Positions 5,953 to 52,617 of a DNA stretch of 64,000 bases are shown here, in pieces; position 1 is the first letter of the stretch; every line of letters starts with the position of its first letter. Position numbers and translations under genes: made by a program. The notes beneath the pieces are model-generated. The model was not told the origin of the DNA, did not search any database, and was given only the letters and a program-made list of their open reading frames with translations. The DNA is from a virus. Location of the stretch: IMG/VR virus record IMGVR_UViG_3300032116_000025. One strand, given 5' to 3'.

Positions 5953-5953
5953 C

Positions 5954-5990: not shown

Positions 5991-6024
5991 GCCCAGCTTT
6001 GGCTGACAGACCGGTTTTGTAAGC

Positions 6025-7123: not shown

Positions 7124-7171
7124 TGGACGTTTGTCCTCCTTCATTCACTGATAGGAGAGGGGTGAGCCCTT

Positions 7172-32102: not shown

Positions 32103-32747
32103 ATGGGAGGAACGCTACGGGAGGAGTTTGCTGCTCAGCTAGACAGCATTGTGGAAGGGGCAGCAAGCCAGCCCAGAACTTACGAGCCTCCGGCTTCTCT
32201 AAGCCCAAAAGGCAAGCGGCGAGCTACACGAGTACCTAGAGAAGAGAGCTTCGGGCGTTTAGACGAGTTCTTGGCAGAAGCACAGGCTGGAGCGCCTGAC
32301 GACTGGCTTGCCAAGCAAGCCAACGTCTCGGGAGAGTCCGTCCTTCTGTGGAGAAAGTCTCGGCAGGTCTCTCGTCGGCGCGGCAGGGGAGGCCAGAGAG
32401 ACCGGGACTTGTGGGCTGTGGATCTACTGGGCGGGTTTAAGTCACCTATCCACGTAGCGCACTCGCCGTTTGACGGGCTTTGGGAAGCGCCTGAGTACGT
32501 TCTCCGAAGGCCACTAAACTACCGAGAGCTTTGTCGGATGGTCTACGCCCTGAACACCACGCTGGGTGCAGGCCCGGAGCTTGTATGTGAGGCGCTCGGA
32601 CTCCGCGAGCGCGATGTAGAGCTAGCCCTGACTGTTTGGACCAACCACCTGTCTAGGCGCGGCGCGCCGTGTAAGGCGTGCGGAGAGCTACTGGACCCTA
32701 GGTACGGCGAGTTCTGCTCAGTTCGCTGCGCAGTGGAGGAAGCATGA
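32103..32747 (+). CDS. putative DNA-binding regulator (HTH-like segments plus C-terminal Zn finger)
   Basis: DDWLAKQANVSGESVLLWRK; PELVCEALGL; CKAC...FCSVRC. Confidence 0.55.
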   Translation: MGGTLREEFAAQLDSIVEGAASQPRTYEPPASLSPKGKRRATRVPREESFGRLDEFLAEAQAGAPDDWLAKQANVSGESVLLWRKSRQVSRRRGRGGQRDRDLWAVDLLGGFKSPIHVAHSPFDGLWEAPEYVLRRPLNYRELCRMVYALNTTLGAGPELVCEALGLRERDVELALTVWTNHLSRRGAPCKACGELLDPRYGEFCSVRCAVEEA

Positions 32748-33355
32748 CGTTAGAGTGGTGGGAGTGGCTTACCTTTTCGGTAGCTGAGCTAAAGGCTGCC
32801 GAGGTAGACCCGTGCGAGAGGTACGACCGTACCGGGCACCGCAGGGCTCTGTCCCGGGTCTGGGCGCGCACCGTGGGCCTATGGGGATTACAGGAAGCAA
32901 GGGACATCATGCGCGTCGCGGGCAAATCCCCGTCAGACCACCGCAATGCCTACGACATCTTTAAGCACCGGCACCAGCTCTGGACGAAGCGGCAGCTTAT
33001 TCGCCGGCAACAAGAGCTTTATCCGGAAAAGACCGGGACTGACTACACACAGTTCTGGCTGGGGCGAGCTTGCTTTGCTGCAATCTACGGAAAGGGAAAA
33101 GCCCTAGACGATGTTCAGCCCGGCCTCTTTGCCCTGCGTCGTGGGTCCATTATCGAAGAGACCGCACAAGCCTACGGCATCCTTCCAATAGAGGCGTGCC
33201 TCTATTACGAAGCCGTCCTTGACCTGCTTGCTGCCAACGACATCAGTGTCTCTTTGTGGGAGGTCATGGACACAAAAGAGAAACGCCATTACTGGGATAC
33301 CGCGTGGGGTGGCAAAGGCGTTCGGGTAGAAGCGCCGCCTTGCATGTTTGGGTAG
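32744..33355 (+). CDS. hypothetical protein
   Basis: ATGA-coupled 203-aa ORF. Confidence 0.55.
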   Translation: MTLEWWEWLTFSVAELKAAEVDPCERYDRTGHRRALSRVWARTVGLWGLQEARDIMRVAGKSPSDHRNAYDIFKHRHQLWTKRQLIRRQQELYPEKTGTDYTQFWLGRACFAAIYGKGKALDDVQPGLFALRRGSIIEETAQAYGILPIEACLYYEAVLDLLAANDISVSLWEVMDTKEKRHYWDTAWGGKGVRVEAPPCMFG

Positions 33356-33364
33356 AATGGCGGC

Positions 33365-33862
33365 ATGGCTACTCGGAGCTTCACTGATTTACACGCACCC
33401 AGGCACCTAGGGCTTGCGCAGTGGGATGAGTACGTAAAGCCGGTGCAGTACACGCAGTTCGTGGCCACCGCAGACCCCGTGCCGCGGCCACAAACACTGC
33501 TGGACTTCTACCTGAACGGAGATCTTCGGCAGATTCTAAACGACGCAGATCTTCGTCCGGATCACTACACCGACAGGCAGAGAGAGGTTCTTCGCCACCT
33601 CGTTTACGGCACCCAGGCGTCTAGCCCGGTTACCACCAAAGACAAGGACGACCTGTTCTATCAATGGACCCGGCAATCGGAACTCAGCTCAAAAAGCAAA
33701 GAGCTAGTGTCGGCAATCTCTGACGCCCGCCATCGGCAAGAGGCAACAGAGAACGAGGGCATCATCATGGACGATGGGCGGTCGTTGGCAGAGCACCAAC
33801 AGGGCCCTTCGTCTTCTCCGACTTTTGAGGGTCAAGACTTCGGGGACAAGATCATCATCTGA
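33365..33862 (+). CDS. hypothetical protein
   Basis: 165-aa ORF. Confidence 0.55.
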   Translation: MATRSFTDLHAPRHLGLAQWDEYVKPVQYTQFVATADPVPRPQTLLDFYLNGDLRQILNDADLRPDHYTDRQREVLRHLVYGTQASSPVTTKDKDDLFYQWTRQSELSSKSKELVSAISDARHRQEATENEGIIMDDGRSLAEHQQGPSSSPTFEGQDFGDKIII

Positions 33863-33926
33863 AATACCCTTAAAAAACCTCCTATAAGTAGTTGAAGCCG
33901 GAACTAATGTTCTGGCTAGGAGGGGT

Positions 33927-34295
33927 ATGACAAAAGAAGAAAAGGAAGAGATCAAGTCGCTCCAGCGGCTGGTCTCCTCTCGTGATGAAGAGATCCGCCA
34001 ACTCCGCAAGGAGTTGGCGGAGGCGGTACGTCCGCCCAGCCAGCTTGTGCTGTTGCGACGGCTCTCCCGGCTTAGCCCGGGAGAGCAAGCACAAATCACT
34101 GTGAACCGCGATCAGTATAATGCGCGGTATCAAGTGGTGTTCCAAGAGAACGACGTGCGATATGAGGGAGAGGCCAACGCGCTTACCGAAGCGCTGTCAT
34201 TGGTAGTGATGGTGCTCCGTCAAGAAAAACAAAAGGAGCTGGAGGAGACAGAGAGGCAGCTCCAGCTCCTCCGCGAGGAGCTGGAGCAGTACTGA
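33927..34295 (+). CDS. coiled-coil hypothetical protein
   Basis: promoter motif at 33881, AGGAGG SD, downstream terminator. Confidence 0.65.
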   Translation: MTKEEKEEIKSLQRLVSSRDEEIRQLRKELAEAVRPPSQLVLLRRLSRLSPGEQAQITVNRDQYNARYQVVFQENDVRYEGEANALTEALSLVVMVLRQEKQKELEETERQLQLLREELEQY

Positions 34296-34299
34296 TCTC

Positions 34300-34345
34300 A
34301 AGCCTGCTCCCCGCCGCAAGGCGGGTCGAGCGGGCTTTCTCTTGC
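34300..34345 (+). terminator. bulged terminator hairpin, family copy 1
   Basis: AAGCCTGCTC-CCCGCC-GCAA-GGCGGG-TC-GAGCGGGCTT followed by TCTCTTG. Confidence 0.7.
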
Positions 34346-34417
34346 CTAACTTTGCCCGTAAAGTCCCTATAAGCGTTTGAAGCGCGGACCTATTGACGCC
34401 GCGATTCAGGAGATAAC

Positions 34418-34768
34418 GTGGCGGTAAACGCGTGCTATCGGTGTGGGTGCTCACACGAACAGTGTGAGTGCCATCTGCGACGCTCCTCCGGAGAGATCCT
34501 CTCTCCGGAGCAAACCGTGGAGGAAGCGGGGAAAGTCCTCGCTATGCTTCGTCGCTCCCGCCCGCCCTACCGGGTCGGGCAATGGGTCGTGCTCGGAGGT
34601 AGTGCCCCCGAGCACCTTCGCGGGGCGGAAGGCCGAGTCTCGGCCGTTCGCTCTGACGGCTCAATTCTGATCAGGCAGCTCAACGAGACTCCGGTAGAAG
34701 TTGAGTCTGCGTGGATCGCCCGCACGGGCACCACGTGGGACAAACTGGCGAAGGCCAAGGAGTCATGA
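34418..34768 (+). CDS. small protein with KOW/SH3-like domain
   Basis: YRVGQWVVL...GRVSAV; promoter motif at 34366. Confidence 0.55.
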   Translation: MAVNACYRCGCSHEQCECHLRRSSGEILSPEQTVEEAGKVLAMLRRSRPPYRVGQWVVLGGSAPEHLRGAEGRVSAVRSDGSILIRQLNETPVEVESAWIARTGTTWDKLAKAKES

Positions 34769-34771
34769 GTC

Positions 34772-34817
34772 AGTTACCCCACTCCCCTACCAAGGGGTCG
34801 AGTGGGGTAACTTTTTG
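34772..34817 (+). terminator. bulged terminator hairpin, family copy 2
   Basis: AGTTACCCCACTC-CCCT..GGGG-TC-GAGTGGGGTAACT followed by TTTTG. Confidence 0.75.
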
Positions 34818-34873
34818 CCAAAAACACCTATAAGAAGATAGATCGGAAACGGTTGTTTCCGCAGGAGGACCAC

Positions 34874-35320
34874 ATGATCAAGAACGGTGCTGAAGACTTG
34901 AACGAGCAGATCAAGAACCTGAGCGAGCAGATCGACAAGCAGAAGCGTACCGAAAAGGCGACCGAGAAGTTCTTCGAAAGGCCGGAGGAGCTTCCGGTCC
35001 TCATGCCGGTGAGGCCGCAGTCGATGACCGTGAACGCGGTCATCGAGTCGATTCTCGCCAAGGGCCCGTTGCCCGAGAGTTCGTTCCGGCAGGTGGTGCT
35101 CCTGCTGGCAGGAGCGAACAAGGCGGCGGATTTGGAGATCTCGATGGCGGTCATGGACCGCATCGAGCGAACGCTTCCGGCGTTCGCCATGCTCATGCAG
35201 AAGCGCCTCTCCCCCGAGGAGGCGGAGATCCATGAACTGGAACTCCGGCTGCGCAAAGCGCAGCTACAGGTGCAGCTTGACGATCTGGAAATCGTCAAGC
35301 ACGCCAAGATCAAGGCGTGA
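34874..35320 (+). CDS. hypothetical protein
   Basis: AGGAGG SD before MIKNG; promoter motif at 34827. Confidence 0.6.
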   Translation: MIKNGAEDLNEQIKNLSEQIDKQKRTEKATEKFFERPEELPVLMPVRPQSMTVNAVIESILAKGPLPESSFRQVVLLLAGANKAADLEISMAVMDRIERTLPAFAMLMQKRLSPEEAEIHELELRLRKAQLQVQLDDLEIVKHAKIKA

Positions 35321-35367: not shown

Positions 35368-35432
35368 GCCAGTAAAAAGTAAAGGAGGGCGCCCAGATCA
35401 GCAGCACGTCCGGGCGCCCCCCTCTACCTAGC

Positions 35433-38400
35433 TTAGAATGCCCGACCAGCGCCTTGGTACGCGGGTGCAGCAAGGGGGCGGGAGGTCTGAGACTCTTCCT
35501 GCGCCATCTGCGTCTGGTTTAGCATATGGCCTGCTCCTACCGCCAGCCCGCCAAGGCCCAACGCGGCAGCTCCACCGGCAATCGGGATGGCATTACGGCG
35601 CAGGAACCCAGGCTGTTTGGGTGCTTCCGGAGCGGCTGGCTGGCCCGCGGGTGCTACCGGTGTAGCCGCTCCGGTAGCTGCTACGGGCGTAGCGGCGGGA
35701 GATGCAGCGGCTGGGGCAGGAGGAGGAGGCGGCGCCACTCCCGCTGACTGCTGCGGTGGTGGCGGCGGGGGCGGAGGTGGGGGCGGCGCAGCACGCTGCG
35801 GAGGTGGTGGGGGTGGAGGCACTGGGCGCGCTGCCGCTGCGGGCGGTGGCGGTGGAGCAACAACGCGCCCCGTCTGGTTCTCAAGAGAGAAGCCAGGGGG
35901 CAGGGCAGGCCCGGGGGTTACGGGCAGCTGAGCCCGCGCGGGCGCGGAACTCGCGCCGGAGGCACGAACTAGCTCAGACAACTCTGGAACGCGACCAGCC
36001 TCTTGCGTAACCGCTTTTGACTCTAGGTTAGCCAGCAGCGACTCAACCTGTGGGGACATTTGTCCCGGATCAGGCTTGGGTAGTGACGACGGCGCTGGTC
36101 GAGGTGCTACTTGGGTTGCCTCGTTCCCAATAGCCTCTCGACGCATGCGATCTTGGGAGGCTCGTAGAGCTTCTGCCCTTCGAGTTTCCTTTGCCGCCGC
36201 GTCAGCTTGACCCTTTGCTAGAACCTCTGCTTGCGAAGGTTCAGCGGGGCGCGCAGCAGGCGTGGCGGGGGGCTTAGCTGCGGGCTTAGCGGCAGGCGCA
36301 GCAGCGGGCGTAGCAGCGGGCGTAGTGGCTGGAGCAGTCGCAGGCGAAGTCTTTGGCGCAGGCGGTGCTTTTTCCCAGCCTAGCGCTTGGCGAGCCTTGC
36401 GGACCTCAGCGGCTTCTGCCGCTCCGCGCCCAGAGACTTCCTTCTTAACTTCGTCGACAAGCTTCTTGTCTTCCGCCCTGGCTGCGGCTCGCGCTGCCTC
36501 AGCCTTATCCAGCTTGGCTTTGTACTCCGGGCTGCCCGTTACGGGGTTTTGCTCACGCTGTTTTGACCTTTGGGCGGCCTCAGACTCCCGCTGTGTCTTA
36601 CGCGCTGCCGCGGCCTGTTCTTCCCGCTCAATGGCAGCACGCTCACGCGCCTGACGCTCAGCGGCCCTGGTTCCCGGCTTTACGTCTGAGCGCCCAGCAA
36701 ACTGTTGGTCTAGCTGGTCCTTACGCTGCTGAATGCGCGCCTGATCCTTTGCTGTCGCAGCCTCAAGCTTGTTGCGGTCTGCTGCGTCGGCCATTTCCCG
36801 CTTAAGTGTATCCCGCGCGGTGTCCTGAGCCTTTAGGCGAGCTACCTCTTTAGAGGCTGCCTCCGGACCCCGGACCTTTGCTCCCGCAAGCCCTTCTCCG
36901 CTCCTAAGCGCCTGTACCTCGGCGCCTAGTTGCTTAGCTTTTCCTGAAACAAAGTTTCGACCCTGACGGCCAAAGTGAATAGCATCGTCGGCAAACTCCC
37001 GCCCTACGTCTTTCAGGGCTCCCAGCGCCTGCCGGGCAATACCTTTGGCGATCTTTTCCTGCTCCTCATTGGTCATGTACTCCCAGTCGGGGTACATGAT
37101 CTGAGCAACCTTGACCGCCTGCCGCATGGCCAAGGCAGCGTTTGCCTTCTTTTCCTTTGACTTGTACTTCATGTAGTCGTGGACGGCGTCAATCGCCTCC
37201 GACGCACGGTCAATCTTGCTCTCAACCCAAGGCTCCGCGTTGTCCCGAACGGATACAGCACCAGAGAGCCGCTTAGACTGATCCGCAAGCCGCTTGAGGT
37301 TGCTGACCATCATGTAGCCGGGCGGGTCATTGTGCTCGGAAAGCACGGACTTTCTGGAGGCTGTCTTTGGGGCTTCCGCCGGAACATAGTCTTCCGGCTT
37401 TTTACCGCCGGGAAGAAGCCGGTCGATCCCGCGAGATACGGGCTTGATAACGCCCGGAGCAACAAGGGCTAGTCCGCCGATCTCCTGAAGATGGTAATCC
37501 TTCATCTTCTTGCCAGCGCCGTGGATTGCGGCTCCCATGGCCTTAATCCTTGGATCGCTGGCGTGCTCCATCTTTTCGCCAGCAAACTGAGCGATAGACG
37601 GGGCCGCTAAAGCAGCAATACCAACGTCGTCTAGCCGATCAGCAATAAACTCGGCGCGCTCGCTGTCCTTAGCCGCCTTGATGTTATCGCCTTGGATCGA
37701 GGCTGCAAAATCGGTAACCGGCGGGATGTCGTCCCCGACGCCATTCCGCTCACCGTTACGCTTTGCAGGCTGAACCAGCGAGGCAATCTTCAAAGAACCA
37801 AAATCGATGTCTTGACCGCTGCTGATGCGCGCAAGGTTCAGCTCAATGAAGGCGTCGAGTTGTGTTCCACCGACTTTGGCGGCCTGCCCCGAGCCGTATG
37901 CCGAGTTCTGCTTAGTCATGTACATTCCGGCTCCAACGCCGGCAAGACCAACGGTTGGGGTTACCCACCACGGCAGCTTAAACCCACCGCCCTCAGCTGC
38001 CGCAGCGGCTGGTGCGCCTGCGGGCGCGGCCGCTGCTGGAGCTGCGCCTGCGGCAGCGGCTGGGGGAGGCGGAGGTACCGCTGCGCCCGGAACCGGGGGA
38101 GGAGCAGCAGCCGGCACTCGGCTGCCTCCTTCGTACTTGACGTGGCCTCCGGACATAAGCCGGTCGCCTGCCCGGGTGGCTTTTACGTCTTGAGTGATGT
38201 TAGACAGCTGCTGTGGCGTCAGGCTTGTGCCCTGTAGGCCGGCCTTGAACGACGCTGCGCTGCGGGCAGATCCTGCGGCTAGTGCGTCACCAGCAGCATG
38301 GGCTACGTTCTTAGTGCCCTGAACTGCCCGGCCAGCAAGGTTAGCCGTGCCTTGAACAGCCTGCTGACCTGCGCGCACTACCCGTCCGAACATGTTTGCT

Positions 38401-39866
38401 GCAACGTTGGCAGCCTTTTCCTGCTCTTCAGGCGACATCCGGTCCCAGTCTGGGAACACCGCACGCGCCAGCTTTACGGCGTCACCGGCGTAGCGTGGAG
38501 TAACCGGCGTGTACGCAAGGCTGGCCTTCTTGTCCCGGTTTGCCAGGTACAAGCCCGTTCCGCCTGCTGCGAGTAAGCCTCCTCCTACTACAAGCGGCGC
38601 ATAACCGCCGGATCCGGTTGCCGGGGCAGCAGCTGGAGTTGCGGCCGGGGCAGCCGCTGGTACCGCCGCTGCACCTTCGTTTTGAACGGCTTGCCGAACG
38701 ACGTTTTCCCGCTGCGTCCTGCTGGCCTCTGCCGCTGCGTTAAGATTCTGCTCAAACGCCTTTTCAGCTGCACGCGCCTGATTCTTAGCCTCTGCATCGA
38801 TAACTGCGGCAGCTTGGGGAAAGCGACCGCTAGGGTCTGTTGCTGAGGGTCGAAGCGGGGGTGTGTAGCCCGTAGTAGGCGCAGGTTGAACCGGTGTCGC
38901 GGCAGGAGACACGCCCCGGGTTGGCGCGGGGATTGGTGCATGCCCTTGTCCGGCTAGATCTCGCCCACGAGCACGGTAGCCCTGCTGAATCGCGTCGTCT
39001 AGGTCCTTGCCACCACGAAGCCCCCCAACCACGTGCTCTATCGGGGCGCCGCGGCGGGTGCTCTGCGACAGCTCTCCTACAGCTTTGCGAGCGCCGGATA
39101 CCCCACCCACTACGCGGCTGTTTGCGGCTTCGCGTGCCTGCTGGGCAATTGCGTTTGCAATGTCTGGCGTAACTTCGTGGCCAGCGGTGGCTAGGCGCTT
39201 GGTTAGCCCAGCGGCAACCCGCTTCTCAATATCGGCCGCAGAAATGGCCAGCTTGGTTACTTCTGCTTTCTTTGATCGCATTGTAGGCTTGCCCTTCTCG
39301 GCCGGAGCACGCTCAGGGAGGTTCTTCATGTTGGGAGTCTCGTCTGCCCATTCCTTCGCCTTCTCTTTTGAGAAGCCAGGAATATGGCCGCCGAATGCGG
39401 CGCGCTGCTGACGCTTGGACGTGAAGGGCATCTTATTCTCCGAAATCTTTTGGCCGTGGTTCTTCTTATCGAGAACCTTACCCTTAAACTCTTCAACGCC
39501 CATCTCCCTCATCGAGCCGAAGAAGCGGGGGTCATTATAGTGAGCTAGGTAAGCCGCCTTAGCCGCTTTGGCGTCCTTAAATCCGAGCATCACCTTCTGC
39601 TCGTCAAACCGCCTGAAGTCTGGCTTCTTCATCTGATCGACGATGAACACGGAGCTGGAGTCGGTATCCGGGCCGACGTAGACATCGACGTGGTCGCCGT
39701 CAGTGCCCTCTGTGCGGCGGAAGTAGCCGTAGTCGTACTTCATCACCGTGGTGCCAGATTCTCCGCTGTGGGGATCCTTCCAATGGCGCGACGACCCTCG
39801 CGGGTTTTCGATAGAAATATCGAACCCGTAGAGCTTTACCCTCTTTTTTATCGGATGTGCGGCCAT
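35433..39866 (-). CDS. 1477-aa modular (polyvalent-type) protein with N-terminal InPase-like domain, probable internal virion protein
   Basis: ISIENP.GS.R...M...YGY...TEG.DGDH.DV.VG...DE.KVMLGF matches the InPase domain of polyvalent proteins; Gly-rich hydrophobic segments, Pro/Ala linkers, many KxA motifs. Confidence 0.75.
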   Translation of the reverse strand: MAAHPIKKRVKLYGFDISIENPRGSSRHWKDPHSGESGTTVMKYDYGYFRRTEGTDGDHVDVYVGPDTDSSSVFIVDQMKKPDFRRFDEQKVMLGFKDAKAAKAAYLAHYNDPRFFGSMREMGVEEFKGKVLDKKNHGQKISENKMPFTSKRQQRAAFGGHIPGFSKEKAKEWADETPNMKNLPERAPAEKGKPTMRSKKAEVTKLAISAADIEKRVAAGLTKRLATAGHEVTPDIANAIAQQAREAANSRVVGGVSGARKAVGELSQSTRRGAPIEHVVGGLRGGKDLDDAIQQGYRARGRDLAGQGHAPIPAPTRGVSPAATPVQPAPTTGYTPPLRPSATDPSGRFPQAAAVIDAEAKNQARAAEKAFEQNLNAAAEASRTQRENVVRQAVQNEGAAAVPAAAPAATPAAAPATGSGGYAPLVVGGGLLAAGGTGLYLANRDKKASLAYTPVTPRYAGDAVKLARAVFPDWDRMSPEEQEKAANVAANMFGRVVRAGQQAVQGTANLAGRAVQGTKNVAHAAGDALAAGSARSAASFKAGLQGTSLTPQQLSNITQDVKATRAGDRLMSGGHVKYEGGSRVPAAAPPPVPGAAVPPPPPAAAAGAAPAAAAPAGAPAAAAAEGGGFKLPWWVTPTVGLAGVGAGMYMTKQNSAYGSGQAAKVGGTQLDAFIELNLARISSGQDIDFGSLKIASLVQPAKRNGERNGVGDDIPPVTDFAASIQGDNIKAAKDSERAEFIADRLDDVGIAALAAPSIAQFAGEKMEHASDPRIKAMGAAIHGAGKKMKDYHLQEIGGLALVAPGVIKPVSRGIDRLLPGGKKPEDYVPAEAPKTASRKSVLSEHNDPPGYMMVSNLKRLADQSKRLSGAVSVRDNAEPWVESKIDRASEAIDAVHDYMKYKSKEKKANAALAMRQAVKVAQIMYPDWEYMTNEEQEKIAKGIARQALGALKDVGREFADDAIHFGRQGRNFVSGKAKQLGAEVQALRSGEGLAGAKVRGPEAASKEVARLKAQDTARDTLKREMADAADRNKLEAATAKDQARIQQRKDQLDQQFAGRSDVKPGTRAAERQARERAAIEREEQAAAARKTQRESEAAQRSKQREQNPVTGSPEYKAKLDKAEAARAAARAEDKKLVDEVKKEVSGRGAAEAAEVRKARQALGWEKAPPAPKTSPATAPATTPAATPAAAPAAKPAAKPPATPAARPAEPSQAEVLAKGQADAAAKETRRAEALRASQDRMRREAIGNEATQVAPRPAPSSLPKPDPGQMSPQVESLLANLESKAVTQEAGRVPELSELVRASGASSAPARAQLPVTPGPALPPGFSLENQTGRVVAPPPPPAAAARPVPPPPPPPQRAAPPPPPPPPPPPQQSAGVAPPPPPAPAAASPAATPVAATGAATPVAPAGQPAAPEAPKQPGFLRRNAIPIAGGAAALGLGGLAVGAGHMLNQTQMAQEESQTSRPLAAPAYQGAGRAF

Positions 39867-39947: not shown

Positions 39948-40610
39948 ATGAGCACCAATGTCTCGCTCAACAGCGGTAACCCCGCCGGCGCGGAGCCGAA
40001 CTCCGCGATTGCCTGCATTGCGGGCATTTTCGTGCAGGTCTACGGTATTGCCGCCTCGAAGTTCGAGACGGCGTGTGTCGGAACGCGGGTAGCGTTCCCG
40101 ATGCAACAATTCGTCCAGGAGTTTGTCGCCCAGGCGGTGAACTCCTGGAAGGGCCCCGATCGGGCGCCCGGGCAGCACTTCATCCAGCTGAAGCTGAACG
40201 AGTACATGCTGGGGAAGTTCCTTAGCGGGGTCGGGCGCCGGACGACAGACCCAAAGGAATACTTCCCCGCTCTGTGGAGGGGAGAAGTGGTTCTGCTCGG
40301 CCGGCGAAAGCTGGCCGAACCCACCACTGGAGTGGCAGTGATCGTGTACACCCGCGAGGCGTACCTCAACGATCCACAGATCGACGAGGCGGGAAGGCGG
40401 TGGCTGGACCCGAGGACGACCCACGTCCTTGTGGACGTCCTCGCATTCTCGAACACGATCGGCTCCCCGCAGCTTAGCCCGCACCGCTTCGTGCGGAACA
40501 TGGCTGGCGGCAACAATACCCAGCTCACGGCAAGCGCCGACGAGCTTCGAGCAGAGGCTCAACTCGTGGCCGCGTACGATGCGAGCTACGTCACGGTCGG
40601 CGACGACTGA
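39948..40610 (+). CDS. DUF3228-like protein
   Basis: VIVYTREAY...P.SP.RF.RN.AGG resemblance; ATG 6 nt after CCTATAAG. Confidence 0.45.
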   Translation: MSTNVSLNSGNPAGAEPNSAIACIAGIFVQVYGIAASKFETACVGTRVAFPMQQFVQEFVAQAVNSWKGPDRAPGQHFIQLKLNEYMLGKFLSGVGRRTTDPKEYFPALWRGEVVLLGRRKLAEPTTGVAVIVYTREAYLNDPQIDEAGRRWLDPRTTHVLVDVLAFSNTIGSPQLSPHRFVRNMAGGNNTQLTASADELRAEAQLVAAYDASYVTVGDD

Positions 40611-40616
40611 CCACAC

Positions 40617-40660
40617 CGCCCGCTCCCCGGCTTCGGCCGGGTTGAGCGGGCGTTCTCTTG
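40617..40660 (+). terminator. bulged terminator hairpin, family copy 4
   Basis: CGCCCGCTC-CCCGGC-TTCG-GCCGGG-TT-GAGCGGGCG followed by TTCTCTTG. Confidence 0.75.
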
Positions 40661-40704
40661 CCTAGTAATACCGCGTTTTCCCCTATAAGCATGTGGAGGA
40701 AACT

Positions 40705-40845
40705 ATGCGACGAAACCGACGATTGGCTGACCTGGCGCGTGAGCGTCAGGCAGCGGAAGTTCGTGAGGAGGTCAAGCAAATCGCGCTTGGCCTCCTCGCG
40801 CTCGTAGGGCTGCTGGCCACATCGTGGCTAGCGGCGTTTATCTGA
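40705..40845 (+). CDS. 46-aa membrane-anchored microprotein (not in ORF track)
   Basis: CCTATAAG, GGAGG SD, MRRNRRLADLARERQAAEVREEVKQIALGLLALVGLLATSWLAAFI*, followed by a terminator. Confidence 0.7.
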   Translation: MRRNRRLADLARERQAAEVREEVKQIALGLLALVGLLATSWLAAFI

Positions 40846-40880
40846 AAGATGGGGAGCCTAACAGGCTCCCCATCTTTTTT
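40846..40880 (+). terminator. intrinsic terminator
   Basis: AAGATGGGGAGCCT-AAC-AGGCTCCCCATCTT followed by U-tract. Confidence 0.8.
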
Positions 40881-41211
40881 GCTTTGCTATCTGTATCCAG
40901 ACCTAGGTAAACCAAACGTATGAGTCGTTCAGAACGCGAGCGGTCCCTTCTTCGTCGGCTACTTGCTATTGCTGTTCACCGGCTTGGTGGGGAAATGCGG
41001 GTCACCAAAGAAGAGGTCTTTACCGGCACTTGGGAGCTGGGGATGGACCACGCAACTCTCCCAACAGTGGTTACCGGATTTCGTGTAGCTTCTAAAGATC
41101 GTGATACTCTGTAGATAGGCCGGTGAGCAGTTTCTGCTGCTTCCTGCTCTTTACCGACCCCGAAGCAGAGCAGCGTCAGGGGAAAGACGGCCACCCTTTA
41201 GGAGCGCACCT

Positions 41212-41400
41212 GTGAACGTCACACGCACCGTCTGGTACATCAGCTCAGACGAAACGGGAAAGCTGGGCCCGTTTTCTACTCAAGAGCAAGCCTACAGCGC
41301 GATCCGCAAAGATCTTTACGCAAGCACAGATCTAGCAAAGCGCCCATCTAACGTAGTCTTGTGGCCCGAGTACGTATCGAGCGCAGACCCAAAGGGATGA
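41212..41400 (+). CDS. small GYF_2-like motif protein
   Basis: WYISSDETGKLGPFSTQEQAY...VLWPE; AGGAG SD. Confidence 0.5.
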   Translation: MNVTRTVWYISSDETGKLGPFSTQEQAYSAIRKDLYASTDLAKRPSNVVLWPEYVSSADPKG

Positions 41401-41445
41401 AATAGCGCTCCTTTTTGCCTATCAGTAGGTAGAAAGGAACGCAAA

Positions 41446-41745
41446 ATGTGCATCCTAAACGATAGCGAGAAGGCCGCGGTATCCGCCGCGGTCACCACCA
41501 TCCTGGAGAAGGGTCTGCCCTTCACGGGTCAGTCGGTCACGCACGAGTTGCGTGACCGGGGCGTCAACCTCCCTCACAGGGAGATTTCCTCGTACACGCG
41601 GGAGATCTTCAACGGCGGAAAGATGCCTGGGTGGGCTTCCACCCAGGTCGTCCCGGGCCTTGGCCCGGTGATGTACTTCCCGGTCCCGCCGCGTAGCGCG
41701 GCGGGGATGGCGGCGGCGAAGCTTCGAAAGAAGCTGGTCCCGTGA
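41446..41745 (+). CDS. small putative winged-helix protein
   Basis: promoter motif at 41418; FTGQSVTHELR. Confidence 0.5.
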   Translation: MCILNDSEKAAVSAAVTTILEKGLPFTGQSVTHELRDRGVNLPHREISSYTREIFNGGKMPGWASTQVVPGLGPVMYFPVPPRSAAGMAAAKLRKKLVP

Positions 41746-42479
41746 AGGACGGTAAGCGGCGGAGGGCGAAAGCCCTCCGCCTGCCGGACGTCCCTGCTTT
41801 CCAGCAGGCGGCGTCCATCCCGGTTAAGGGCCAAAAGCCCCTAACCCAATTGGCTGACCTGGCGCGTGAGCGTCAGGCAAAGGGGCAGGAGGACATGCGT
41901 GAGGTGCGCAGGCACCTTGAGCGCTCCTGCAAAGAGTCGGGACGGCAGAACACCTACGGCGGGGTGTTCTACAGCTACACAGTGTTGAAGCCGAAAGAGC
42001 TTCGGCACAAGGACAACACGCGGACCCTGTGGCACGGTACCGCCCTCGGCAATCTCACGAACATCCTAATACACGGATTTAGGCCTTCGTACGGAGGGCT
42101 TATGGGTCCGGGCGTCTACTTCGGTGGACGCCAGAAAGCCGAGGCATACTCAAGGGCCCCCCTCGGAGCGCTGCTCCGATGCGAGGTGGCCCTGGGCCGA
42201 ACAGCGGATGCCGTTCCCTCGTGGGAGGACGCGCGCCCGCCGTACGACACCCTACACGGCGTGCCCGGCCAGACGCGCACGTATGGATCGTCCACCCTTC
42301 TTAACGAAGAATGGGCGGTCCTTGACCCTGCCCGAATCTCCATTCACGAAATTCGGGTGTTCACTGCAAATCGAGGCGAGTGTGTCCGATGCGGACGCCT
42401 TGTCAGCGATGAGCACCTTCAGTCGAGGTGGTCACCGCGCCACAAAGACTTCATCAGGCTTTGTGGCCACTGTCTGTGA
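41742..42479 (+). CDS. PARP-like (H-Y-E) ADP-ribosyltransferase with C-terminal Zn finger
   Basis: LWHGT...ILIHGF...MGPGVYF...AEAYS...LLRCEVALGR...YD...NEEWAV; CVRC...CGHC. Confidence 0.85.
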   Translation: MKDGKRRRAKALRLPDVPAFQQAASIPVKGQKPLTQLADLARERQAKGQEDMREVRRHLERSCKESGRQNTYGGVFYSYTVLKPKELRHKDNTRTLWHGTALGNLTNILIHGFRPSYGGLMGPGVYFGGRQKAEAYSRAPLGALLRCEVALGRTADAVPSWEDARPPYDTLHGVPGQTRTYGSSTLLNEEWAVLDPARISIHEIRVFTANRGECVRCGRLVSDEHLQSRWSPRHKDFIRLCGHCL

Positions 42480-42484
42480 GTAAT

Positions 42485-42522
42485 GCGGCCTCCCCATAAC
42501 GGGTTGAGGCCGCTTTACTTTT
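42485..42522 (+). terminator. bulged terminator hairpin, family copy 5
   Basis: GCGGCCTC-CCC-ATAAC-GGG-TT-GAGGCCGC followed by TTTACTTTTG. Confidence 0.7.
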
Positions 42523-42575
42523 GCTCCCAAAATATGCGCCGTTTCTCGTATAAGATATTGCGGCTCAACTTACCT

Positions 42576-42647
42576 GCCCCCTTAGCTCAGCGGTAGAGCA
42601 ACGGTTTTGTAAACCGTAGGTCGTCGGTTCAATCCCGACAGGGGGCT
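42576..42647 (+). tRNA. trnT: tRNA-Thr(UGU)
   Basis: cloverleaf, ACGGT-TTTGTAA-ACCGT. Confidence 0.95.
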
Positions 42648-42650
42648 CAC

Positions 42651-42731
42651 GCGGGAATGGCGGAATGGCAGACGCACCAGACTTAGGATCTGGCGCCGAA
42701 AGGTGTGGGGGTTCAAATCCCCCTTCCCGCA
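42651..42731 (+). tRNA. trnL: tRNA-Leu(UAG)
   Basis: CCAGA-CTTAGGA-TCTGG, long variable arm. Confidence 0.95.
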
Positions 42732-42735
42732 CAAA

Positions 42736-42809
42736 CGGGGTGTAGCACAGCCTGGTAGTGCGCCAGCTTTGGGAGCTGGAAGTCGCAGGTTCAAATCCTG
42801 TCGCCCCGA
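42736..42809 (+). tRNA. trnP: tRNA-Pro(UGG)
   Basis: CGGGGTG acceptor, CCAGC-TTTGGGA-GCTGG. Confidence 0.95.
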
Positions 42810-42823
42810 CTAAGGAGGTACGA

Positions 42824-43324
42824 ATGAAAAAGGTAATGGCCGCTCTCATGATGGCCTACGCCTCTACCGCAGAGGCCCAAGACCCCTACGAACTAGGCCG
42901 CCGTGATCCTGCTCTGCTACTGGGCCAAGCTCTAGTAGCAGAAGCAGGATGGCGGTTTCACGCAGATCATCTTGCAATACCCTGGGTTATTTCTCGCCGG
43001 GCAACCCTTCCGGCATTTCGCCGAGCGTCAAACCCAGAGGTCGCAGCGTTGATTGCTTACGTCTCAGCGTTAAAGTGCGCCGATCCCGCTCGTCGGTGCG
43101 ACTCTGAACGGCGTCGCCGGATGCGATCTATAACTTGGGGGATGCTTGACTCCCTTGCCCCGAAGATTGCGCGCGTTGCCCGTGATTGGTTCGGGGGTCG
43201 TCGTCATCCAGACCCCTGCCCAGACGCCTGGCACTGGGGCAGTGGGTTGCGCCGTTCGTCTCAGTTGGTTGTGCAGTGCGGGCACACGACTAACACGTTT
43301 CTTGGCAGACCCGTCTACCCGTAA
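42824..43324 (+). CDS. secreted SleB/cell-wall-hydrolase-like protein
   Basis: TAAGGAGGT SD, signal peptide MKKVMAALMMAYASTAEA, LGQALVAEAGW...AI.WVI.RR. Confidence 0.55.
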   Translation: MKKVMAALMMAYASTAEAQDPYELGRRDPALLLGQALVAEAGWRFHADHLAIPWVISRRATLPAFRRASNPEVAALIAYVSALKCADPARRCDSERRRRMRSITWGMLDSLAPKIARVARDWFGGRRHPDPCPDAWHWGSGLRRSSQLVVQCGHTTNTFLGRPVYP

Positions 43325-43344
43325 ACCGCCACACAAGGAACAGA

Positions 43345-43896
43345 ATGCCTAACTGGTGCAGCAACCACGGATTCATCAAGCTTCCAACCAACGCTTCTCC
43401 AGAGGCTGTTGCGGCGTTTAGGGCGCTAAGCAAGGTCGAGGATGACAAAGATGAGTGGTTCGCTAAGGTGCTCCCGTGCCCCCCTGAAGCGGACTGGTAC
43501 GAATGGCGGATCCGCCGTTACGGAACAAAATGGGACGTAACCCCCTCGCTTGCCGTAACGGACGACCAGATCAACTTCTCGTTTGAGTCGGCGTGGGCTC
43601 CGCCGCTAGAGTTTTTCAAGCATCTCGCGGAGACCTACGGCCTTCACTACCAGATTCAGTACTCAGAGCCGGGCTGCTGCTTCGGCGGTACCGCGTCCTA
43701 CGACGGGGATTTTCAAGACAAGTACGTTGAAAACGAGGAGTACCTCGTCGCGGCGGTGGATGAGTTTGGCGAGCCGATAGAGTCGGTCCTGTGCGTCGAA
43801 TCGTACGAGTCCTTCGACGCTTTCTGTAAGGCTCACAAAATTGATAGCCCAAGGCTCAAAGACTTGGTACGAGATTATTACCGCGACCACAACTAG
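43345..43896 (+). CDS. DUF1281/YubB ferredoxin-like domain protein
   Basis: MPNWCSN, WYEWR...GTKWD, FESAWAPP, YSEPG..FGG. Confidence 0.85.
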   Translation: MPNWCSNHGFIKLPTNASPEAVAAFRALSKVEDDKDEWFAKVLPCPPEADWYEWRIRRYGTKWDVTPSLAVTDDQINFSFESAWAPPLEFFKHLAETYGLHYQIQYSEPGCCFGGTASYDGDFQDKYVENEEYLVAAVDEFGEPIESVLCVESYESFDAFCKAHKIDSPRLKDLVRDYYRDHN

Positions 43897-43902
43897 TGGT
43901 CG

Positions 43903-43987
43903 GGAGGAGTGGCCGAGTGGTCTAAGGCAGCGGTTTTGAAAACCGCCGTGGGGCAACCCACCAGGGGTTCGAATCCCTTCTCCTCCG
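43903..43987 (+). tRNA. trnS: tRNA-Ser(UGA)
   Basis: GCGGT-TTTGAAA-ACCGC, long variable arm. Confidence 0.95.
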
Positions 43988-43989
43988 CT

Positions 43990-44188
43990 CGTGCCCGCCA
44001 ACCACGGGCTAGTGAGGGTGGAATACCTCATGAAGAAGCGGGGTGGTTCCCGTACGTTAGATAGCCCCGGACCCCGGAGGGGTCGGAGGCGTACAGCCCG
44101 TAAGCGGTTCTGGCTGGAGGTCGTTTGGCTGGAGGCGAAAGCCGATGAAAGTCGAGTAGCCGACGAAGGTCAACCGTACTGTACGAAC
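43990..44188 (+). ncRNA. unidentified structured RNA 1 between tRNA-Ser and tRNA-Val
   Basis: multiple nested helices and GNRA loops; no credible ORF. Confidence 0.6.
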
Positions 44189-44189
44189 T

Positions 44190-44261
44190 GCGGGAATAGC
44201 TCAGGGGTAGAGCGCCTCCTTTACACGGAGGAAGTCGGGGGTTCGAAACCCTCTTCCCGTA
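44190..44261 (+). tRNA. trnV: tRNA-Val(UAC)
   Basis: CCTCC-TTTACAC-GGAGG. Confidence 0.95.
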
Positions 44262-44265
44262 CTAA

Positions 44266-44351
44266 GCGAGCGTGGCGAAATCGGCATACGCAGCGGATTT
44301 AAAATCCGCGGGGCCGCAAGGCTCGTGAGGGTTCAAACCCCTCCGCTCGCA
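44266..44351 (+). tRNA. trnL: tRNA-Leu(UAA)
   Basis: GCGGA-TTTAAAA-TCCGC, long variable arm. Confidence 0.95.
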
Positions 44352-44354
44352 CTG

Positions 44355-44526
44355 TTAGTCCCGGTGAGGTGAGATCGGTCTCTCAGGAGACTAGGGCACC
44401 GGGATGGTAGTCAGATGAGCAACGTCGCTGTTGACCACGCGAAAGCGTACGAGGCGCGCCAAGTCGTCTGGCGAAAGGCACACCGGAAGGTGGCAAAGCC
44501 CAAGCCGTGGATATGCTGCACGGCAT
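44355..44526 (+). ncRNA. unidentified structured RNA 2 between tRNA-Leu and tRNA-Lys
   Basis: TCCCGGTG/CACCGGGA, GTCAGATGA/TCGTCTGGC, ACGC-GAAA-GCGT, CACC-GGAA-GGTG, GCCGTG/CACGGC. Confidence 0.6.
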
Positions 44527-44528
44527 TA

Positions 44529-44600
44529 GGGATCGTAGATCAGTGGTAGATCAGCGGGCTTTTAACCCGTAGGTCGTGGGTTCGATCCCCACCGGTCCCA
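44529..44600 (+). tRNA. trnK: tRNA-Lys(UUU)
   Basis: GCGGG-CTTTTAA-CCCGT. Confidence 0.93.
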
Positions 44601-44604
44601 CTTC

Positions 44605-44675
44605 TCGGGGTTCGTCTAAGGGCAGGACATCGGCCTTTGAAGCCGCGAATGATGGTTCGATTCCATCACCCCGAA
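44605..44675 (+). tRNA. trnQ: tRNA-Gln(UUG), second copy
   Basis: CGGC-CTTTGAA-GCCG; 5' half nearly identical to the 29055 copy. Confidence 0.88.
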
Positions 44676-45285: not shown

Positions 45286-46005
45286 TCAGGCCATCTGCTC
45301 TAGCGTGATGTTCTGCACCGCGATCGGAATCGCTAGCTCAAACTGCACGGCAACCGACTCCTGAACGATGACGCCCTGCGCGTCTGTCGCAAAGGTGTGG
45401 TTGGGGATGTAGCAGCTCTCAAGGTAGAAAGCGCCGTAGGTCTTGAGGTTGGAGTCCTTGACCATGATCAGCAAGCCGATGGGCTGGCTAAACAGGTCCG
45501 AGGCAAGGTTGATGTAGAAGTTCTCGTAGCCCGGGGGCACAACGACGTTGTGCGGGTTAGGCATCGCCGCCGCACCCGGGTTCGGGAACACCGGGGGGAT
45601 CTCCGTCGGCAGCTGCGTGTCCGTGTAGTAGGCATAAAGCACCCGTAGGATGCTTGGGCCGTGGTACAGGATGCGCGAAAGGCCGAGCTGGCCAATCGTG
45701 CGGCCCGAGATGAAGTACGACCGCTCCGAGCCAAGCTCGAAGATACGGCTGAACTGCCGGTTGTGGCTAAGGTTGATGTTCTGCGTAACACCAATCGGGT
45801 AAACGATGGTGGACCCGCCCGCGGGGGTAGAAATCGCGGGTGTGAACCCAAGAACACCGCCTACCGAAGCCAGCCGTGACGGGCCAGCAAAGATTCCGCA
45901 GAAGGCGCCGGAGACGAACTGCCCGTCCACCATGCCCGGGCCTTCACCTCCCGTCTGGACGTAGTTCTCGTAGGGCTTCCAGTTAGCGTAACTAGCGTTA
46001 GCCAT
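45286..46005 (-). CDS. tail tube protein
   Basis: downstream of the sheath; IGVTQNINLSHNRQFSRIFELGS...YLESCYI..H.F......IVQESV.VQFE tube-like beta pattern. Confidence 0.7.
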   Translation of the reverse strand: MANASYANWKPYENYVQTGGEGPGMVDGQFVSGAFCGIFAGPSRLASVGGVLGFTPAISTPAGGSTIVYPIGVTQNINLSHNRQFSRIFELGSERSYFISGRTIGQLGLSRILYHGPSILRVLYAYYTDTQLPTEIPPVFPNPGAAAMPNPHNVVVPPGYENFYINLASDLFSQPIGLLIMVKDSNLKTYGAFYLESCYIPNHTFATDAQGVIVQESVAVQFELAIPIAVQNITLEQMA

Positions 46006-46025
46006 GATCTTCTCCTAGCGGGCCT

Positions 46026-46343
46026 TCAGCCCTTCACATCTTGAAGAAATGCGTCAACGGTACGCTGACCGGCGAGCATCATTTCCGCCAGCTTCATGCT
46101 TACTTTGTGCTCGCGCAGCTTCTCTTCTGCGCGCTCCCGCTTGCTGCGGGCAATCTCCTCGACAACCTCTCGCGGAGACCGCCCGCCAGCCACAAAGTCC
46201 ATGCCCGACTCCTTGCTTTGCAGCTCGGCACGCTCTGAGGCTTCCTCGTCCTGACGGCTGCGGTGCTCTGTAAGCTCCACAACAAGGGCGTCGTCTAGCG
46301 CCTGAGCGTGCTGGCTGTACTTGAAGTCGTCCATGGTGCTCAC
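46026..46343 (-). CDS. hypothetical protein between sheath and tube
   Basis: GTGA-coupled to the sheath gene. Confidence 0.55.
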   Translation of the reverse strand: MSTMDDFKYSQHAQALDDALVVELTEHRSRQDEEASERAELQSKESGMDFVAGGRSPREVVEEIARSKRERAEEKLREHKVSMKLAEMMLAGQRTVDAFLQDVKG

Positions 46344-49300: not shown

Positions 49301-49531
49301 TCCGCCGATGCCCGTGTAGGTAGCGCCGACAAACCCAAACGCGAGCCGCGCCGGAAGGGTGACCTGAGCTTCCGAGTTCAGAGTGCCGTCGTCAAGGACA
49401 GCCTCAATGACCTGGAAGCAGGGTCCCATGACGCAGGCCGGGAGCGTGGGAACAAGGATCTGGGGAGAGGTCGTCCGGAACTCCTGGATGACCTGAACTC
49501 CGGGCCTTTCGATCGTGGGCGGACTTGCCAT
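46340..49531 (-). CDS. contractile tail sheath protein
   Basis: N-terminal RPGVQVIQEF; C-terminal RHQLTTD....REFSI...DF...IR..LRNFIGR.NIT...P.NYI.VTL. Confidence 0.85.
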   Translation of the reverse strand: MASPPTIERPGVQVIQEFRTTSPQILVPTLPACVMGPCFQVIEAVLDDGTLNSEAQVTLPARLAFGFVGATYTGIGGTTLRLSVDNAAEVGITFAALPANKTPAQVAQAINDEEITGLLAEVEESGGSSRVVLRTTAKGENATIAVGTTTSAALLATAWPGTGFNLLPGYKAVGRLGYTNFFSFEPQLSDYPDPRSNLSDLTIDYATVRVFINNGAGNVREALKTETFLDGAGTAVSVINDGDGDNLSPYLQFTGAEFQARNASVTGTVDWTTLTYPADFGTFTLEVYVDGVLNNITFANPVDAAGAISQLNAGLTGATAVLNASNRPVITSSTAPGATCAGSIQIGPVTGGSSIGFGVIGLLPSLYGGPKPGFARALGVVDLTSVATWATDVQGKVLRMSLDGDYWQQLVMPTSVVSGATLVAAINTLWGANVASISTFDNQLVLRSVSSTGGVTIRGKESVILIDKDASDATMLSTVGLTGLGGPFGAAASTGTSAVYGTAFAPAVGDEVWVDGIRLGQVTEIPTGVSNRLRISAEQLLTYTGTSWYVVAKGLDNDLWTTTRPSSDLYIDTDSGTVRVKHNIFRDSGGTPTVAGPLAIYLGYTALRKDVSPATEDFNLLRIGSVADLEAQLSPIDTQNPLGLGMYFAILNAPGLEVTGVGVDDTSTTEPEGTLDAYTRAFEFIESKDVYAIAPLTHSGEVGLVGQVHVDEMSLPANGLERVLMLNPSRPTRKSSTLVASGPLGNVTAAPTSNVVETGIANLQALLAALGYPGPYNPASTVDVPVYLEFEDDTNKYLVQSVSGGQVTINDGPLTAGNDDGFYYAPGSPVFTASIVDRPFTVKIRGALIANRTEEAVAYGELALGYRDRRVIATAPAQAKATLDGLETLIDGYYLSCALAGKTSAKLPQEPMTESTLVGFTGVVGSQDRYSEAQLKILSGSGLWVFYQEADGQPVRTRHQLTTDMSTVEKREFSITTALDFASKLIRASLRNFIGRFNITTSVQDAITTTMEGLRNFLIRLSVFESFEINAIRQNATDPTRLEIDVTVGVFYPLNYIQVTLVV

Positions 49532-51070: not shown

Positions 51071-51071
51071 C

Positions 51072-51695: not shown

Positions 51696-51696
51696 A

Positions 51697-52608: not shown

Positions 52609-52617
52609 ACAGGGTGG

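Follow-up and report, generated by a model that had tools for sequence, protein, structure and literature searches.

The locus described here raises a simple question: what is a single long minus-strand gene, lying outside the head module, doing with a chain of unrelated domains, and is its product cut into pieces? A sequence-only reading of the window (the whole stretch of DNA analysed, 64,000 nucleotides) had proposed a packaged polyprotein of KxA-delimited modules, cut into separate effectors or channel subunits. The protein, P0001, comes from an uncultured phage with a genome of 160.7 kb (~161 kb), and an identical protein is found on 10 contigs from public assemblies. Its gene had been described as a lone minus-strand gene in a plus-strand block, 10 kb from the head genes; indeed, it is the only minus-strand gene between the plus-strand cassettes that flank it on both sides (32103-35320 and about 39950-44675), and the head module starts at ~50447-52618, about 10.6-12.7 kb away. 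In a syntenic relative (L002), the corresponding gene also has opposite-strand neighbours on both sides. The P0001 gene sits among early-looking cassettes, has the same orientation as the late genes, and keeps its position in relatives; opposite-strand cassettes lie between it and the late genes, and it has its own terminator. As this terminator-like hairpin and T-run come directly after the stop codon, the gene looks monocistronic. No promoter motif common to the P0001 gene and the late genes was found; CTTATAGG, a strand-biased word near the gene, belongs to the divergent plus-strand cassettes. The features of the locus are the following:

35433-39866, minus strand: whole ORF of P0001, 1477 aa, stop-free translation, TAA stop at 35433-35435
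39438-39866, minus strand: InPase domain, aa 1-143, ending in K-I-S (aa 140-142)
39441-39449, minus strand: candidate site K-I-S, aa 140-142, InPase-to-A linker, low pLDDT
39264-39431, minus strand: module A, aa 146 to ~201-203, MPFTSKRQQR...LPERAPAEKGKPTMRSKKA, own Met first, K-K-A last
38481-38708, minus strand: unit U1, aa 387-462, Pro/Ala linker, Gly-rich hydrophobic segment 424-442, KKAS 446-449, PRYAG tail-like motif
38523-38531, minus strand: candidate site K-K-A↓S, aa 446-448, AF2-disordered
38409-38480, minus strand: repeat R1, aa 463-486, VKLARAVFPDWDRMSPEEQEKAA
37887-38156, minus strand: unit U2, aa 571-660, Pro/Ala linker, Gly-rich hydrophobic segment 631-651, SAYGSG
37782-37790, minus strand: candidate site K-I-A↓S, aa 693-695, before the low-pLDDT linker 697-711
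37416-37682, minus strand: module B, aa 729-817, helical bundle (AF2 helices) with two hydrophobic LA.AP helices, starting at KAA 730
37359-37367, minus strand: candidate site K-T-A↓S, aa 834-836, within the low-pLDDT linker 834-844
37137-37358, minus strand: module C, aa 837-910, ..EPWVESKIDRASEAIDAVHDYMKYK, helical hairpin between KTAS 834 and KKA 906
37047-37118, minus strand: repeat R2, aa 917-940, VKVAQIMYPDWEYMTNEEQEKIA
35592-36989, minus strand: aa 960-1425, charged helical or coiled-coil-like, then Pro/Ala and poly-Pro low-complexity linkers, described from composition only
35436-35591, minus strand: unit U3, aa 1426-1477, Gly-rich hydrophobic segment, C-terminal ..PAYQGAGRAF
35372-35421, minus strand: terminator-like G+C-rich hairpin and T-run just past the P0001 stop, read from the sequence

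By its profile and acidic residues, the P0001 InPase is assigned to the phage-type family I inorganic pyrophosphatases. The “InPase-like domain” first seen by eye matches PF18823 of Pfam over aa 7-129 (E 6.5e-39, 133.3 bits vs. a cut-off of 26.8) and retains the family-invariant residues E20, R27, Y46, D56, D58, D61, D88, E89, and K91; P0001 positions were compared with about 50 relatives, and the matching positions are 90-100% conserved. We take the conserved acidic residues to be metal-binding or catalytic-site positions, a mapping that draws in part on PMC5512222. AF2 models the domain as a beta-barrel (pLDDT >90), which matches the C-terminal domain of portal PDB 9b41 (E 3e-20); in the Pa193 virion portal, the C-terminal part is an InPase domain (PDB 9b41; PMC11456595), and in Bordetella phage PHB04 the InPase domain adjoins the portal gene. 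PMC5512222 treats the InPase domain as confined to the polyvalent proteins of phages; this paper and the virion portal bear out the statement that such domains occur in polyvalent proteins.

Judged from the sequences of its relatives, P0001 is a member of a family of multi-module phage proteins that is widespread but uncatalogued, with a layout of InPase, module A, helical module B, K-h-A..YPDxEYMT, Pro/Ala linker, Gly-rich hydrophobic segment, and Y.G.GR.F tail. P0001 has at least eight modules, the InPase and at least seven uncatalogued swappable ones; it looks like an enlarged version, as if two or three such proteins had been strung together, given its three linker, hydrophobic, and tail units and its two R motifs. 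Among 154 relatives, modules A, B, and C are each found alone in small proteins, the stand-alone homologs that the sequence-only reading had suggested looking for, as well as in other combinations and orders. Module B accompanies InPase in dozens of proteins and also forms stand-alone proteins of 112-172 aa; the R motif K-h-A...YPD[WFY]EYMT..E is present in 15 relatives, and its duplication in P0001 was rightly noticed (YPDW..EEQEK at aa 463-486 and 917-940). The helical PWVESKI...HDYM module, our module C, is modelled by AF2 as a confident helical hairpin (pLDDT 85-97); it shares 84-88% identity with part of the ferritin-domain proteins P0008-P0010 of the head module, and in a relative the ferritin-like module C proteins are encoded a few genes after an MCP-sized gene. 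Most of the 51 listed relatives have a hydrophobic segment with a Y.G.GR.F-type C-terminal tail. In P0001, the three Pro/Ala linker plus Gly-rich hydrophobic units span aa 387-442, 571-651, and 1323-1449, as had been described; only the C-terminal Gly-rich segment reaches usual transmembrane hydropathy (1.65), the two internal ones being marginal (1.2-1.4), and AF2 gives pLDDT <50 for aa 399-455 and leaves 424-442 unstructured, which makes the “channel subunits” weak.

These modules have hardly any catalogued counterpart: A, B, C, R, and the Gly-rich tail have no match in Pfam or PHROGs, apart from a weak match of stand-alone A-like peptides to phrog_1375 (PHROGs). When 50,697 deposited phage genomes were searched at the DNA and protein levels, the InPase domain was the only match, modules A, B, and C being left unmatched; Foldseek of the AF2 model of aa 650-960 vs. 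PDB gave nothing better than E 0.9, generic helical bundles only; the ESM Atlas feature search gave no usable match. In IMG/VR, a search with the module A profile found relatives, and a pattern-based search with aa 136-1010 confirmed none.

Module A is the clearest case of portability: this 56-residue unit forms the N-terminus of dozens of unrelated proteins of 62-1259 aa, ends in K-x-[AS] in 50/55 extended copies, and its alignment falls from 70% identity before the tripeptide to 10% after it. In P0001 it is internal (aa 146-201), after the InPase, and begins with its own Met, as had been noticed. In the phage's own genome, P0001 modules have no further copy by whole-protein tblastn or by the profile of module A, so A is not a targeting tag common to several proteins of the phage. 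Met146 has GGAG 6 nt upstream, like late genes, and this is also present in the ortholog P0002; as GGAG-type cores precede 4/28 in-frame ATGs of the ORF, we keep an internal start only as a hint.

We then come to the tripeptides themselves. The nine K-x-A instances reported at the outset are all present (aa 199, 205, 446, 465, 693, 834, 906, 919, and 938). K-x-A is found 15 times vs. 19.3 expected and K-x-[AS] 19 times vs. 24.5 (z -1.3), with z up to 5.5 in some head ORFs of the same genome; roughly one in two K-x-A sites falls within a predicted helix or a conserved motif and is an unlikely cut site. Placement is another matter: over 428 homology breakpoints of P0001 against the 154 relatives, 55% fall ≤5 residues from a K-x-[AS] site vs. 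15% by chance (p 0.0004). By these alignments, K-x-[AS] exceeds chance in its placement at module joints and its conservation in relatives, not in number; of the “KxA-delimited modules”, the coincidence of joints with sites is supported. Four unrelated modules (InPase, A, B, and R) have K-x-[AS] at an edge beyond which similarity falls sharply, and relatives retain sites that lie in non-conserved linkers. The AlphaFold check that had been advised places K-x-[AS] at predicted linkers: the K-x-A-S sites 446, 693, and 834 and KIS140 are in low-confidence linkers of the AF2 models. In P0002, module swaps and insertions start right after the aligned K-x-[AS] sites: KIS140 aligns with K-I-A, directly followed by a 310-aa insertion; KKA446 with K-E-S, followed by a different module (DUF5661); KIA693 with K-F-S. 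Nine close relatives have K-x-A at equal distance before module C.

On the protease side, the Pfam S77 prohead protease profile has no match in the genome, two head-module ORFs have no sequence match in PDB, and Pfam and PHROGs scans found no peptidase domain in P0001. A Lys-x-Ala↓Ser head-protease specificity was not found in the literature, and the phage G multi-omics paper contains no cleavage-site data.

Domain content, module portability, K-x-[AS] at joints and linkers, and a module C common to head-module proteins are direct results; a modular chain with K-x-[AS]-tagged joints makes head loading and cutting of P0001 probable. The explanation that we favour, giving it about an even chance of being right, is that P0001 is a head-packaged polyvalent protein, putatively processed at the candidate linker K-x-A↓S sites. 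P0001 would be synthesised alongside the late proteins and taken up by the prohead, as is thought for other InPase polyvalent proteins; the head-maturation protease would cut it at K-x-A↓S/E in flexible joints, near aa 142, 201, 448, 695, and 836, giving an InPase fragment, a basic A peptide, and fragments each with a Gly-rich hydrophobic anchor at the end. The pieces would exit with the DNA at infection; in the new host, InPase would remove pyrophosphate or a nucleotide-like signal, and the hydrophobic Pro-rich pieces would act at the envelope. Against this explanation count the K-x-A total, which is not above expectation, the sites inside helices or conserved motifs, the failure to find a prohead protease by sequence, and the position of the gene outside the head module with a terminator of its own. 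Of the packaged polyprotein first proposed, the separately occurring modules and the K-x-[AS] joints are supported, and the channel subunits are weak.

On this reading, P0001 is of a known kind (polyvalent or internal head proteins), with uncatalogued modules and K-x-A/S joints. Polyvalent proteins combine two to fifteen distinct domains per phage or plasmid polypeptide in varied combinations (Iyer, Burroughs, Anand, de Souza, Aravind 2017, PMC5512222); their delivery with DNA and processing into units have been proposed, and a self-processing MPTase domain is frequent, not obligatory (PMC5512222). Among those with an InPase are giant proteins of the DarB-like type and gp19, the Pbunavirus portal, which carries it at the C-terminus (PDB 9b41). 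P0001 resembles them in its several unrelated domains, in variable combinations in relatives, in an InPase of the same monophyletic phage type (PF18823), and in a gene co-oriented with late genes; it differs from them in having no metallopeptidase or other peptidase domain, partner modules absent from Pfam/PHROGs, K-x-A/S joints, and a gene outside the head module.

In T4, IPI-III and Alt carry an N-terminal capsid-targeting sequence that is removed by the prohead protease gp21 at L/I-x-E. Module A is likewise a conserved leader with a tripeptide at its end and variable cargo after it, and the head-internal location and ejection that we propose for P0001 are also similar; however, the A leader has 56 aa vs. 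about 10 in T4, ends in K-x-A/S instead of L/I-x-E, is internal in P0001 and single-copy in the genome, and comes with no S77 protease by sequence. Herpesvirus assemblin has maturation and release sites of the form (V/L)-x-A↓S; the candidate linker sites K-K-A-S, K-I-A-S, and K-T-A-S share this Ala-Ser pair but have Lys at P3. The Dar proteins of P1 (DarB, DdrB) are, as cited by PMC5512222, large head-packaged proteins, DdrB being proteolytically processed before packaging. P0001 is comparable as a large multi-domain protein, head-carried and injected in our proposal, but has no methylase or helicase domains, and a DarA-type partner was not identified. At another locus (L019), the same InPase is part of a 3249-aa protein of the DarB-like type, and a module A-like reading frame comes after it.

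A bolder version, less likely than not, makes module A a portable head-loading leader that closes with a candidate K-x-A↓S cut site, recognised by a protease whose assemblin-like specificity has not been described before. On that view, P0001 would be a polyprotein in the full sense: cleavage in the prohead would yield a working pyrophosphatase, a short basic peptide, and at least three Gly-rich anchored pieces ejected into the host, and the out-of-frame A mini-gene in giant polyvalent genes of other phages would be a mobile loading unit. If the joints are real cut sites, P0001 would be a test substrate for Lys-x-Ala↓Ser head-protease specificity and help define at least five portable, uncatalogued modules shuffled among the head cargo of large uncultured phages; module A alone would flag as likely cargo dozens of proteins that otherwise defy annotation, and the injected protein repertoire of uncultured phages would be predictable from sequence. 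If the joints are uncut, what remains is a useful account, domain by domain, of a widespread family that bears InPase.

That P0001 stays uncut, as a functional or packaged multi-domain protein whose K-x-[AS] are helical-module caps or favoured recombination joints, is a serious contender that we nevertheless find doubtful. It would account for tripeptides that are not enriched by count, for the failure to find a protease by sequence, and for sites within conserved helices (K-h-A in the R motif, KAA730 where B begins, KKA906 in a long helix), but not easily for one tripeptide tagging the edges of InPase, A, B, and R with a sharp drop in similarity past it, for sites kept by relatives in non-conserved linkers, or for the high z of some head ORFs. 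We consider it rather improbable that P0001 is a non-virion, Gly-rich tail-anchored inner-membrane protein of the infected cell, serving for example exclusion, envelope remodelling, or replication-site anchoring: an independent transcription unit in an early-looking cassette block, a family-conserved C-terminal hydrophobic segment with basic residues before it, and long Pro-rich spacers would suit such a role, whereas the marginal internal Gly-rich segments, the missing AF2 helix at 424-442, a module C common to head-module proteins, and the ties of InPase domains to portals and polyvalent virion proteins speak against it.

Favouring, as we do, a packaged and processed protein, we also had to consider a tail tape-measure protein, since P0001 is long and partly helical with Gly-rich hydrophobic segments, and since sheath (46340-49531), tube (45286-46005), and P0001 genes follow each other on the minus strand with only opposite-strand islands between. 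This is most unlikely: same-position orthologs vary between 1092 and 1578 aa and have exchanged whole modules, with a tube protein 92% identical, which is not ruler-like; no tape-measure family of Pfam or PHROGs matches; and poly-Pro stretches would be unusual in a tape measure. A stronger candidate of 1284 aa (genome 73357-77211) adjoins baseplate-sized genes and has N-terminal Gly-rich hydrophobic segments and a tail-like Lys depletion. On ortholog lengths, module swaps, profiles, and this candidate, we rejected the tape-measure identity. The closest cultured MCP is that of Salmonella phage Arash, at 24% identity, and, in favour of our main reading, P0001 with 6.7% Lys sides with the head-assembly proteins of its genome (6-9%) and not with its tail proteins (0.2-2%).

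The ORF at 35433-39866 (minus strand) is stop-free over 1477 residues and encodes P0001, a protein found in identical form on 10 public contigs; the IMG/VR virus record containing the window is 160,725 bp long and rated complete. The gene is the sole minus-strand gene between plus-strand cassettes, with a G+C-rich hairpin and a T-run 3' of its stop codon, and its orthologs at loci L002 and L005 likewise stand alone on the strand opposite to their neighbours. The flanking plus-strand cassettes are preceded by a strand-biased CCTATAAG box, 10 of the 11 genome copies having the same orientation. On the minus strand, the first base of [CT]TTATAGG (CCTATAA[AG] on the plus strand) is at window positions 33888, 34373, 34834, 39941, 40689, 44757, and 45034; further positions are genome 154551 and 34222. 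In the three places read closely, the CCTATAAG box lies 6-20 nt 5' of a start codon, and it has the look of a -10 element belonging to one promoter class, that of these single-gene cassettes.

P0001 is rich in Ala (19.5%), Pro (9.4%), and Gly (8.9%), contains 6.7% Lys, and can be divided as follows.

Segments of P0001 (residues)
1-143: InPase domain (PF18823, 133 bits), AlphaFold2 (AF2) beta-barrel with pLDDT above 90
146-201: module A
208-386: helical stretch
387-462: unit U1, Pro/Ala linker, Gly-rich hydrophobic segment (424-442), KKAS, and "PRYAG" motif
463-486: repeat R1
571-660: unit U2, same build as U1
729-817: module B, helical bundle with two hydrophobic LA.AP helices
837-910: module C, confident helical hairpin
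917-940: repeat R2
960-1425: charged helical stretch, then poly-Pro/Ala
1426-1477: unit U3, Gly-rich segment (hydropathy 1.65) and C-terminal ..PAYQGAGRAF

The InPase domain retains the acidic residues that are invariant in its family. Neither Pfam nor PHROGs gave a match for module A, B, C, the repeat motif or the tail, and the model of residues 650-960 found no matching fold in the PDB. Most of the 51 relatives listed have, at their C-terminus, a Y.G.GR.F-type tail preceded by a Gly-rich hydrophobic segment, and U1 is similar to the "PARYAG" tail seen in a second subfamily; because relatives end in this way and U1 is tail-like, P0001 looks, from its sequence, like two or three family members fused end to end.

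The nine K-x-A instances quoted in the sequence-only reading are all present in P0001. Their number is not above chance, with 15 K-x-A seen for 19.3 expected from shuffles, 19 K-x-[AS] for 24.5 (z -1.3), and 6 K-[LVIMT]-A for 3.9; their placement, however, is. We matched P0001 locally to 154 homologs, took all match ends in residues 130-1000 (428 ends), and compared them with a null of circularly shifted sites: 55% of the ends are no more than 5 residues away from a K-x-[AS] site vs. 15% under circular shifts (p 0.0004), and 35% vs. 15% when only unique ends are counted (p 0.005). K-x-[AS] sites are aligned between P0001 and its closest full-length ortholog P0002 (1578 aa) at residues 140, 199, 205, 446, 484, 693, 730, 834, and 919. 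At some of these sites the module content differs: P0002 has a 310-aa insertion directly after the K-I-A closing InPase, DUF5661 after the site aligned to residue 446, and DUF6582 in place of module C between sites 834 and 919. In nine close relatives, a K-x-A precedes module C by a constant number of residues in otherwise divergent surroundings, and in most of them another follows it. In the AF2 models, low-confidence linkers contain or adjoin KIS140, KKA199/KLA205, KKAS446, KIAS693, and KTAS834, the linker sites 446, 693, and 834 all reading K-x-A-S; the sites at 97-103, 465, 484, 730, 906, 919, and 938 are in helices. Given these aligned joints and linkers, the domain boundaries are not unrelated to the K-x-A positions.

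Some observations connect P0001 to the head. The ferritin-domain head-module proteins P0008-P0010 contain a segment with 84-88% identity to module C, and in a 155-kb relative, the ferritin gene bearing this segment lies a few genes past an MCP-sized gene, where our genome has a shorter ferritin-like gene (54562-55956). This protein has 464 aa here vs. 944-1217 aa in relatives (P0008, P0009, P0010, and P0019), whose longer version carries module C and further segments. Since module C sits in the relatives' ferritin-like protein, the head-module and InPase genes exchange modules. The InPase domain itself matches (E 3e-20) a C-terminal part of the Pa193 portal that is unresolved in PDB 9b41, where residues 529-765 are without density (PMC11456595), and in Bordetella phage PHB04, InPase occurs as a separate protein, encoded a few genes past the portal gene and next to a giant methylase. 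Iyer et al. count InPase as one of the domains confined to phage polyvalent proteins and propose that it clears PPi or attacks nucleotide signals (PMC5512222).

P0001 is a putative variation on the polyvalent/internal-head-protein theme, in which K-x-A/S marks the joints and several of the modules are new. The sequence-only reading, a packaged polyprotein cut into separate products, is partly supported: the separate modules and their marked joints speak for it, and against it stands the head protease, which we sought by sequence in the genome and did not find. On this reading, cuts would be expected after residues 142, 201, 448, 695, and 836. Searches of deposited phage genomes returned no cultured relative, and we found no cleavage data in the accessible literature. 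That P0001 is a multi-domain protein left uncut is a minority reading that we take seriously; that it is a membrane protein foreign to the virion, its Gly-rich hydrophobic segments and its head-linked module C both considered, is less likely still.

A tape-measure role for P0001 is unlikely, as its orthologs span 1092-1578 aa with module swaps, against 92% identity for the tube protein. The ORF at genome 73357-77211, which encodes 1284 aa with 15% Gly, 0.2% Lys, and Gly-rich hydrophobic N-terminal segments, is a better candidate and the likelier tape measure. Tail proteins are nearly devoid of Lys, and P0001 resembles head-assembly proteins in this respect (6-9% Lys vs. 0.2-2.0% in tail, sheath, and baseplate-sized proteins; low-Lys ORFs at genome 73357-77211, 67628-71344, 45019-49020, and 39843-44057, and window 45286-49531). 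K-x-[AS] density per 100 aa is 1.3 in P0001, 2-5 in head-assembly ORFs, and 0-0.4 in tail ORFs.

Module A had been described as beginning "with its own Met like a fused small gene", and its 40-65-aa core is indeed a common stand-alone phage ORF. Dozens of proteins (62-1259 aa) start with it at their residue 1; in others, it is internal and follows InPase, and in a third group, it precedes InPase. An ..APAEKGKPT.. extension is found in 55 of 81 aligned copies, 50 of which end at a K-x-[AS] a few residues further on; mean pairwise identity is 70% over the 15 residues before this end and 10% after it. Judged by its sequence, this conservation is what one would see in a leader that stops at a defined point, although the genome has a single copy of the module. 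The in-frame Met146, residue 1 of module A, has a GGAG 6 nt upstream, at late-gene spacing (window 39429-39449, minus strand); no GGAG-type element precedes the annotated start at 39866, and the internal MPF of P0002 also has GGGAGAGG 6 nt upstream despite different local amino acids. A second product from Met146 is possible, but similar cores precede 4 of the 28 ATGs that are in frame.

In 19 of 80 loci, a module A-like ORF of 40-58 aa lies inside a long same-strand ORF (270-3703 aa), with its own ATG, poly-Lys tail, and stop, and always in the +1 frame (L019, L035, L036, L037, L044, L045, L047, L048, L051, L057, L063, L064, L066, L071, L076, L077, L082, L085, and L086; the module A match is at about 10001-10130 in loci with full 10-kb flanks and elsewhere in the remaining ones). 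The contigs range from 32 to 58% GC, and the unrelated host ORFs are similar only over the approximately 45 aa of overlap. In L019, the mini-ORF begins 28 nt past the InPase of its host, a DarB-like polyvalent protein of 3249 aa. The arrangement in these loci looks like a nested, overprinted mini-gene travelling with polyvalent genes.

Elsewhere in the genome, a 2067-aa ORF (1089-7292) looks like a fused, multisubunit-type RNA polymerase, with hits to several beta/beta-prime PHROGs of phage RNA polymerases spread over its length.
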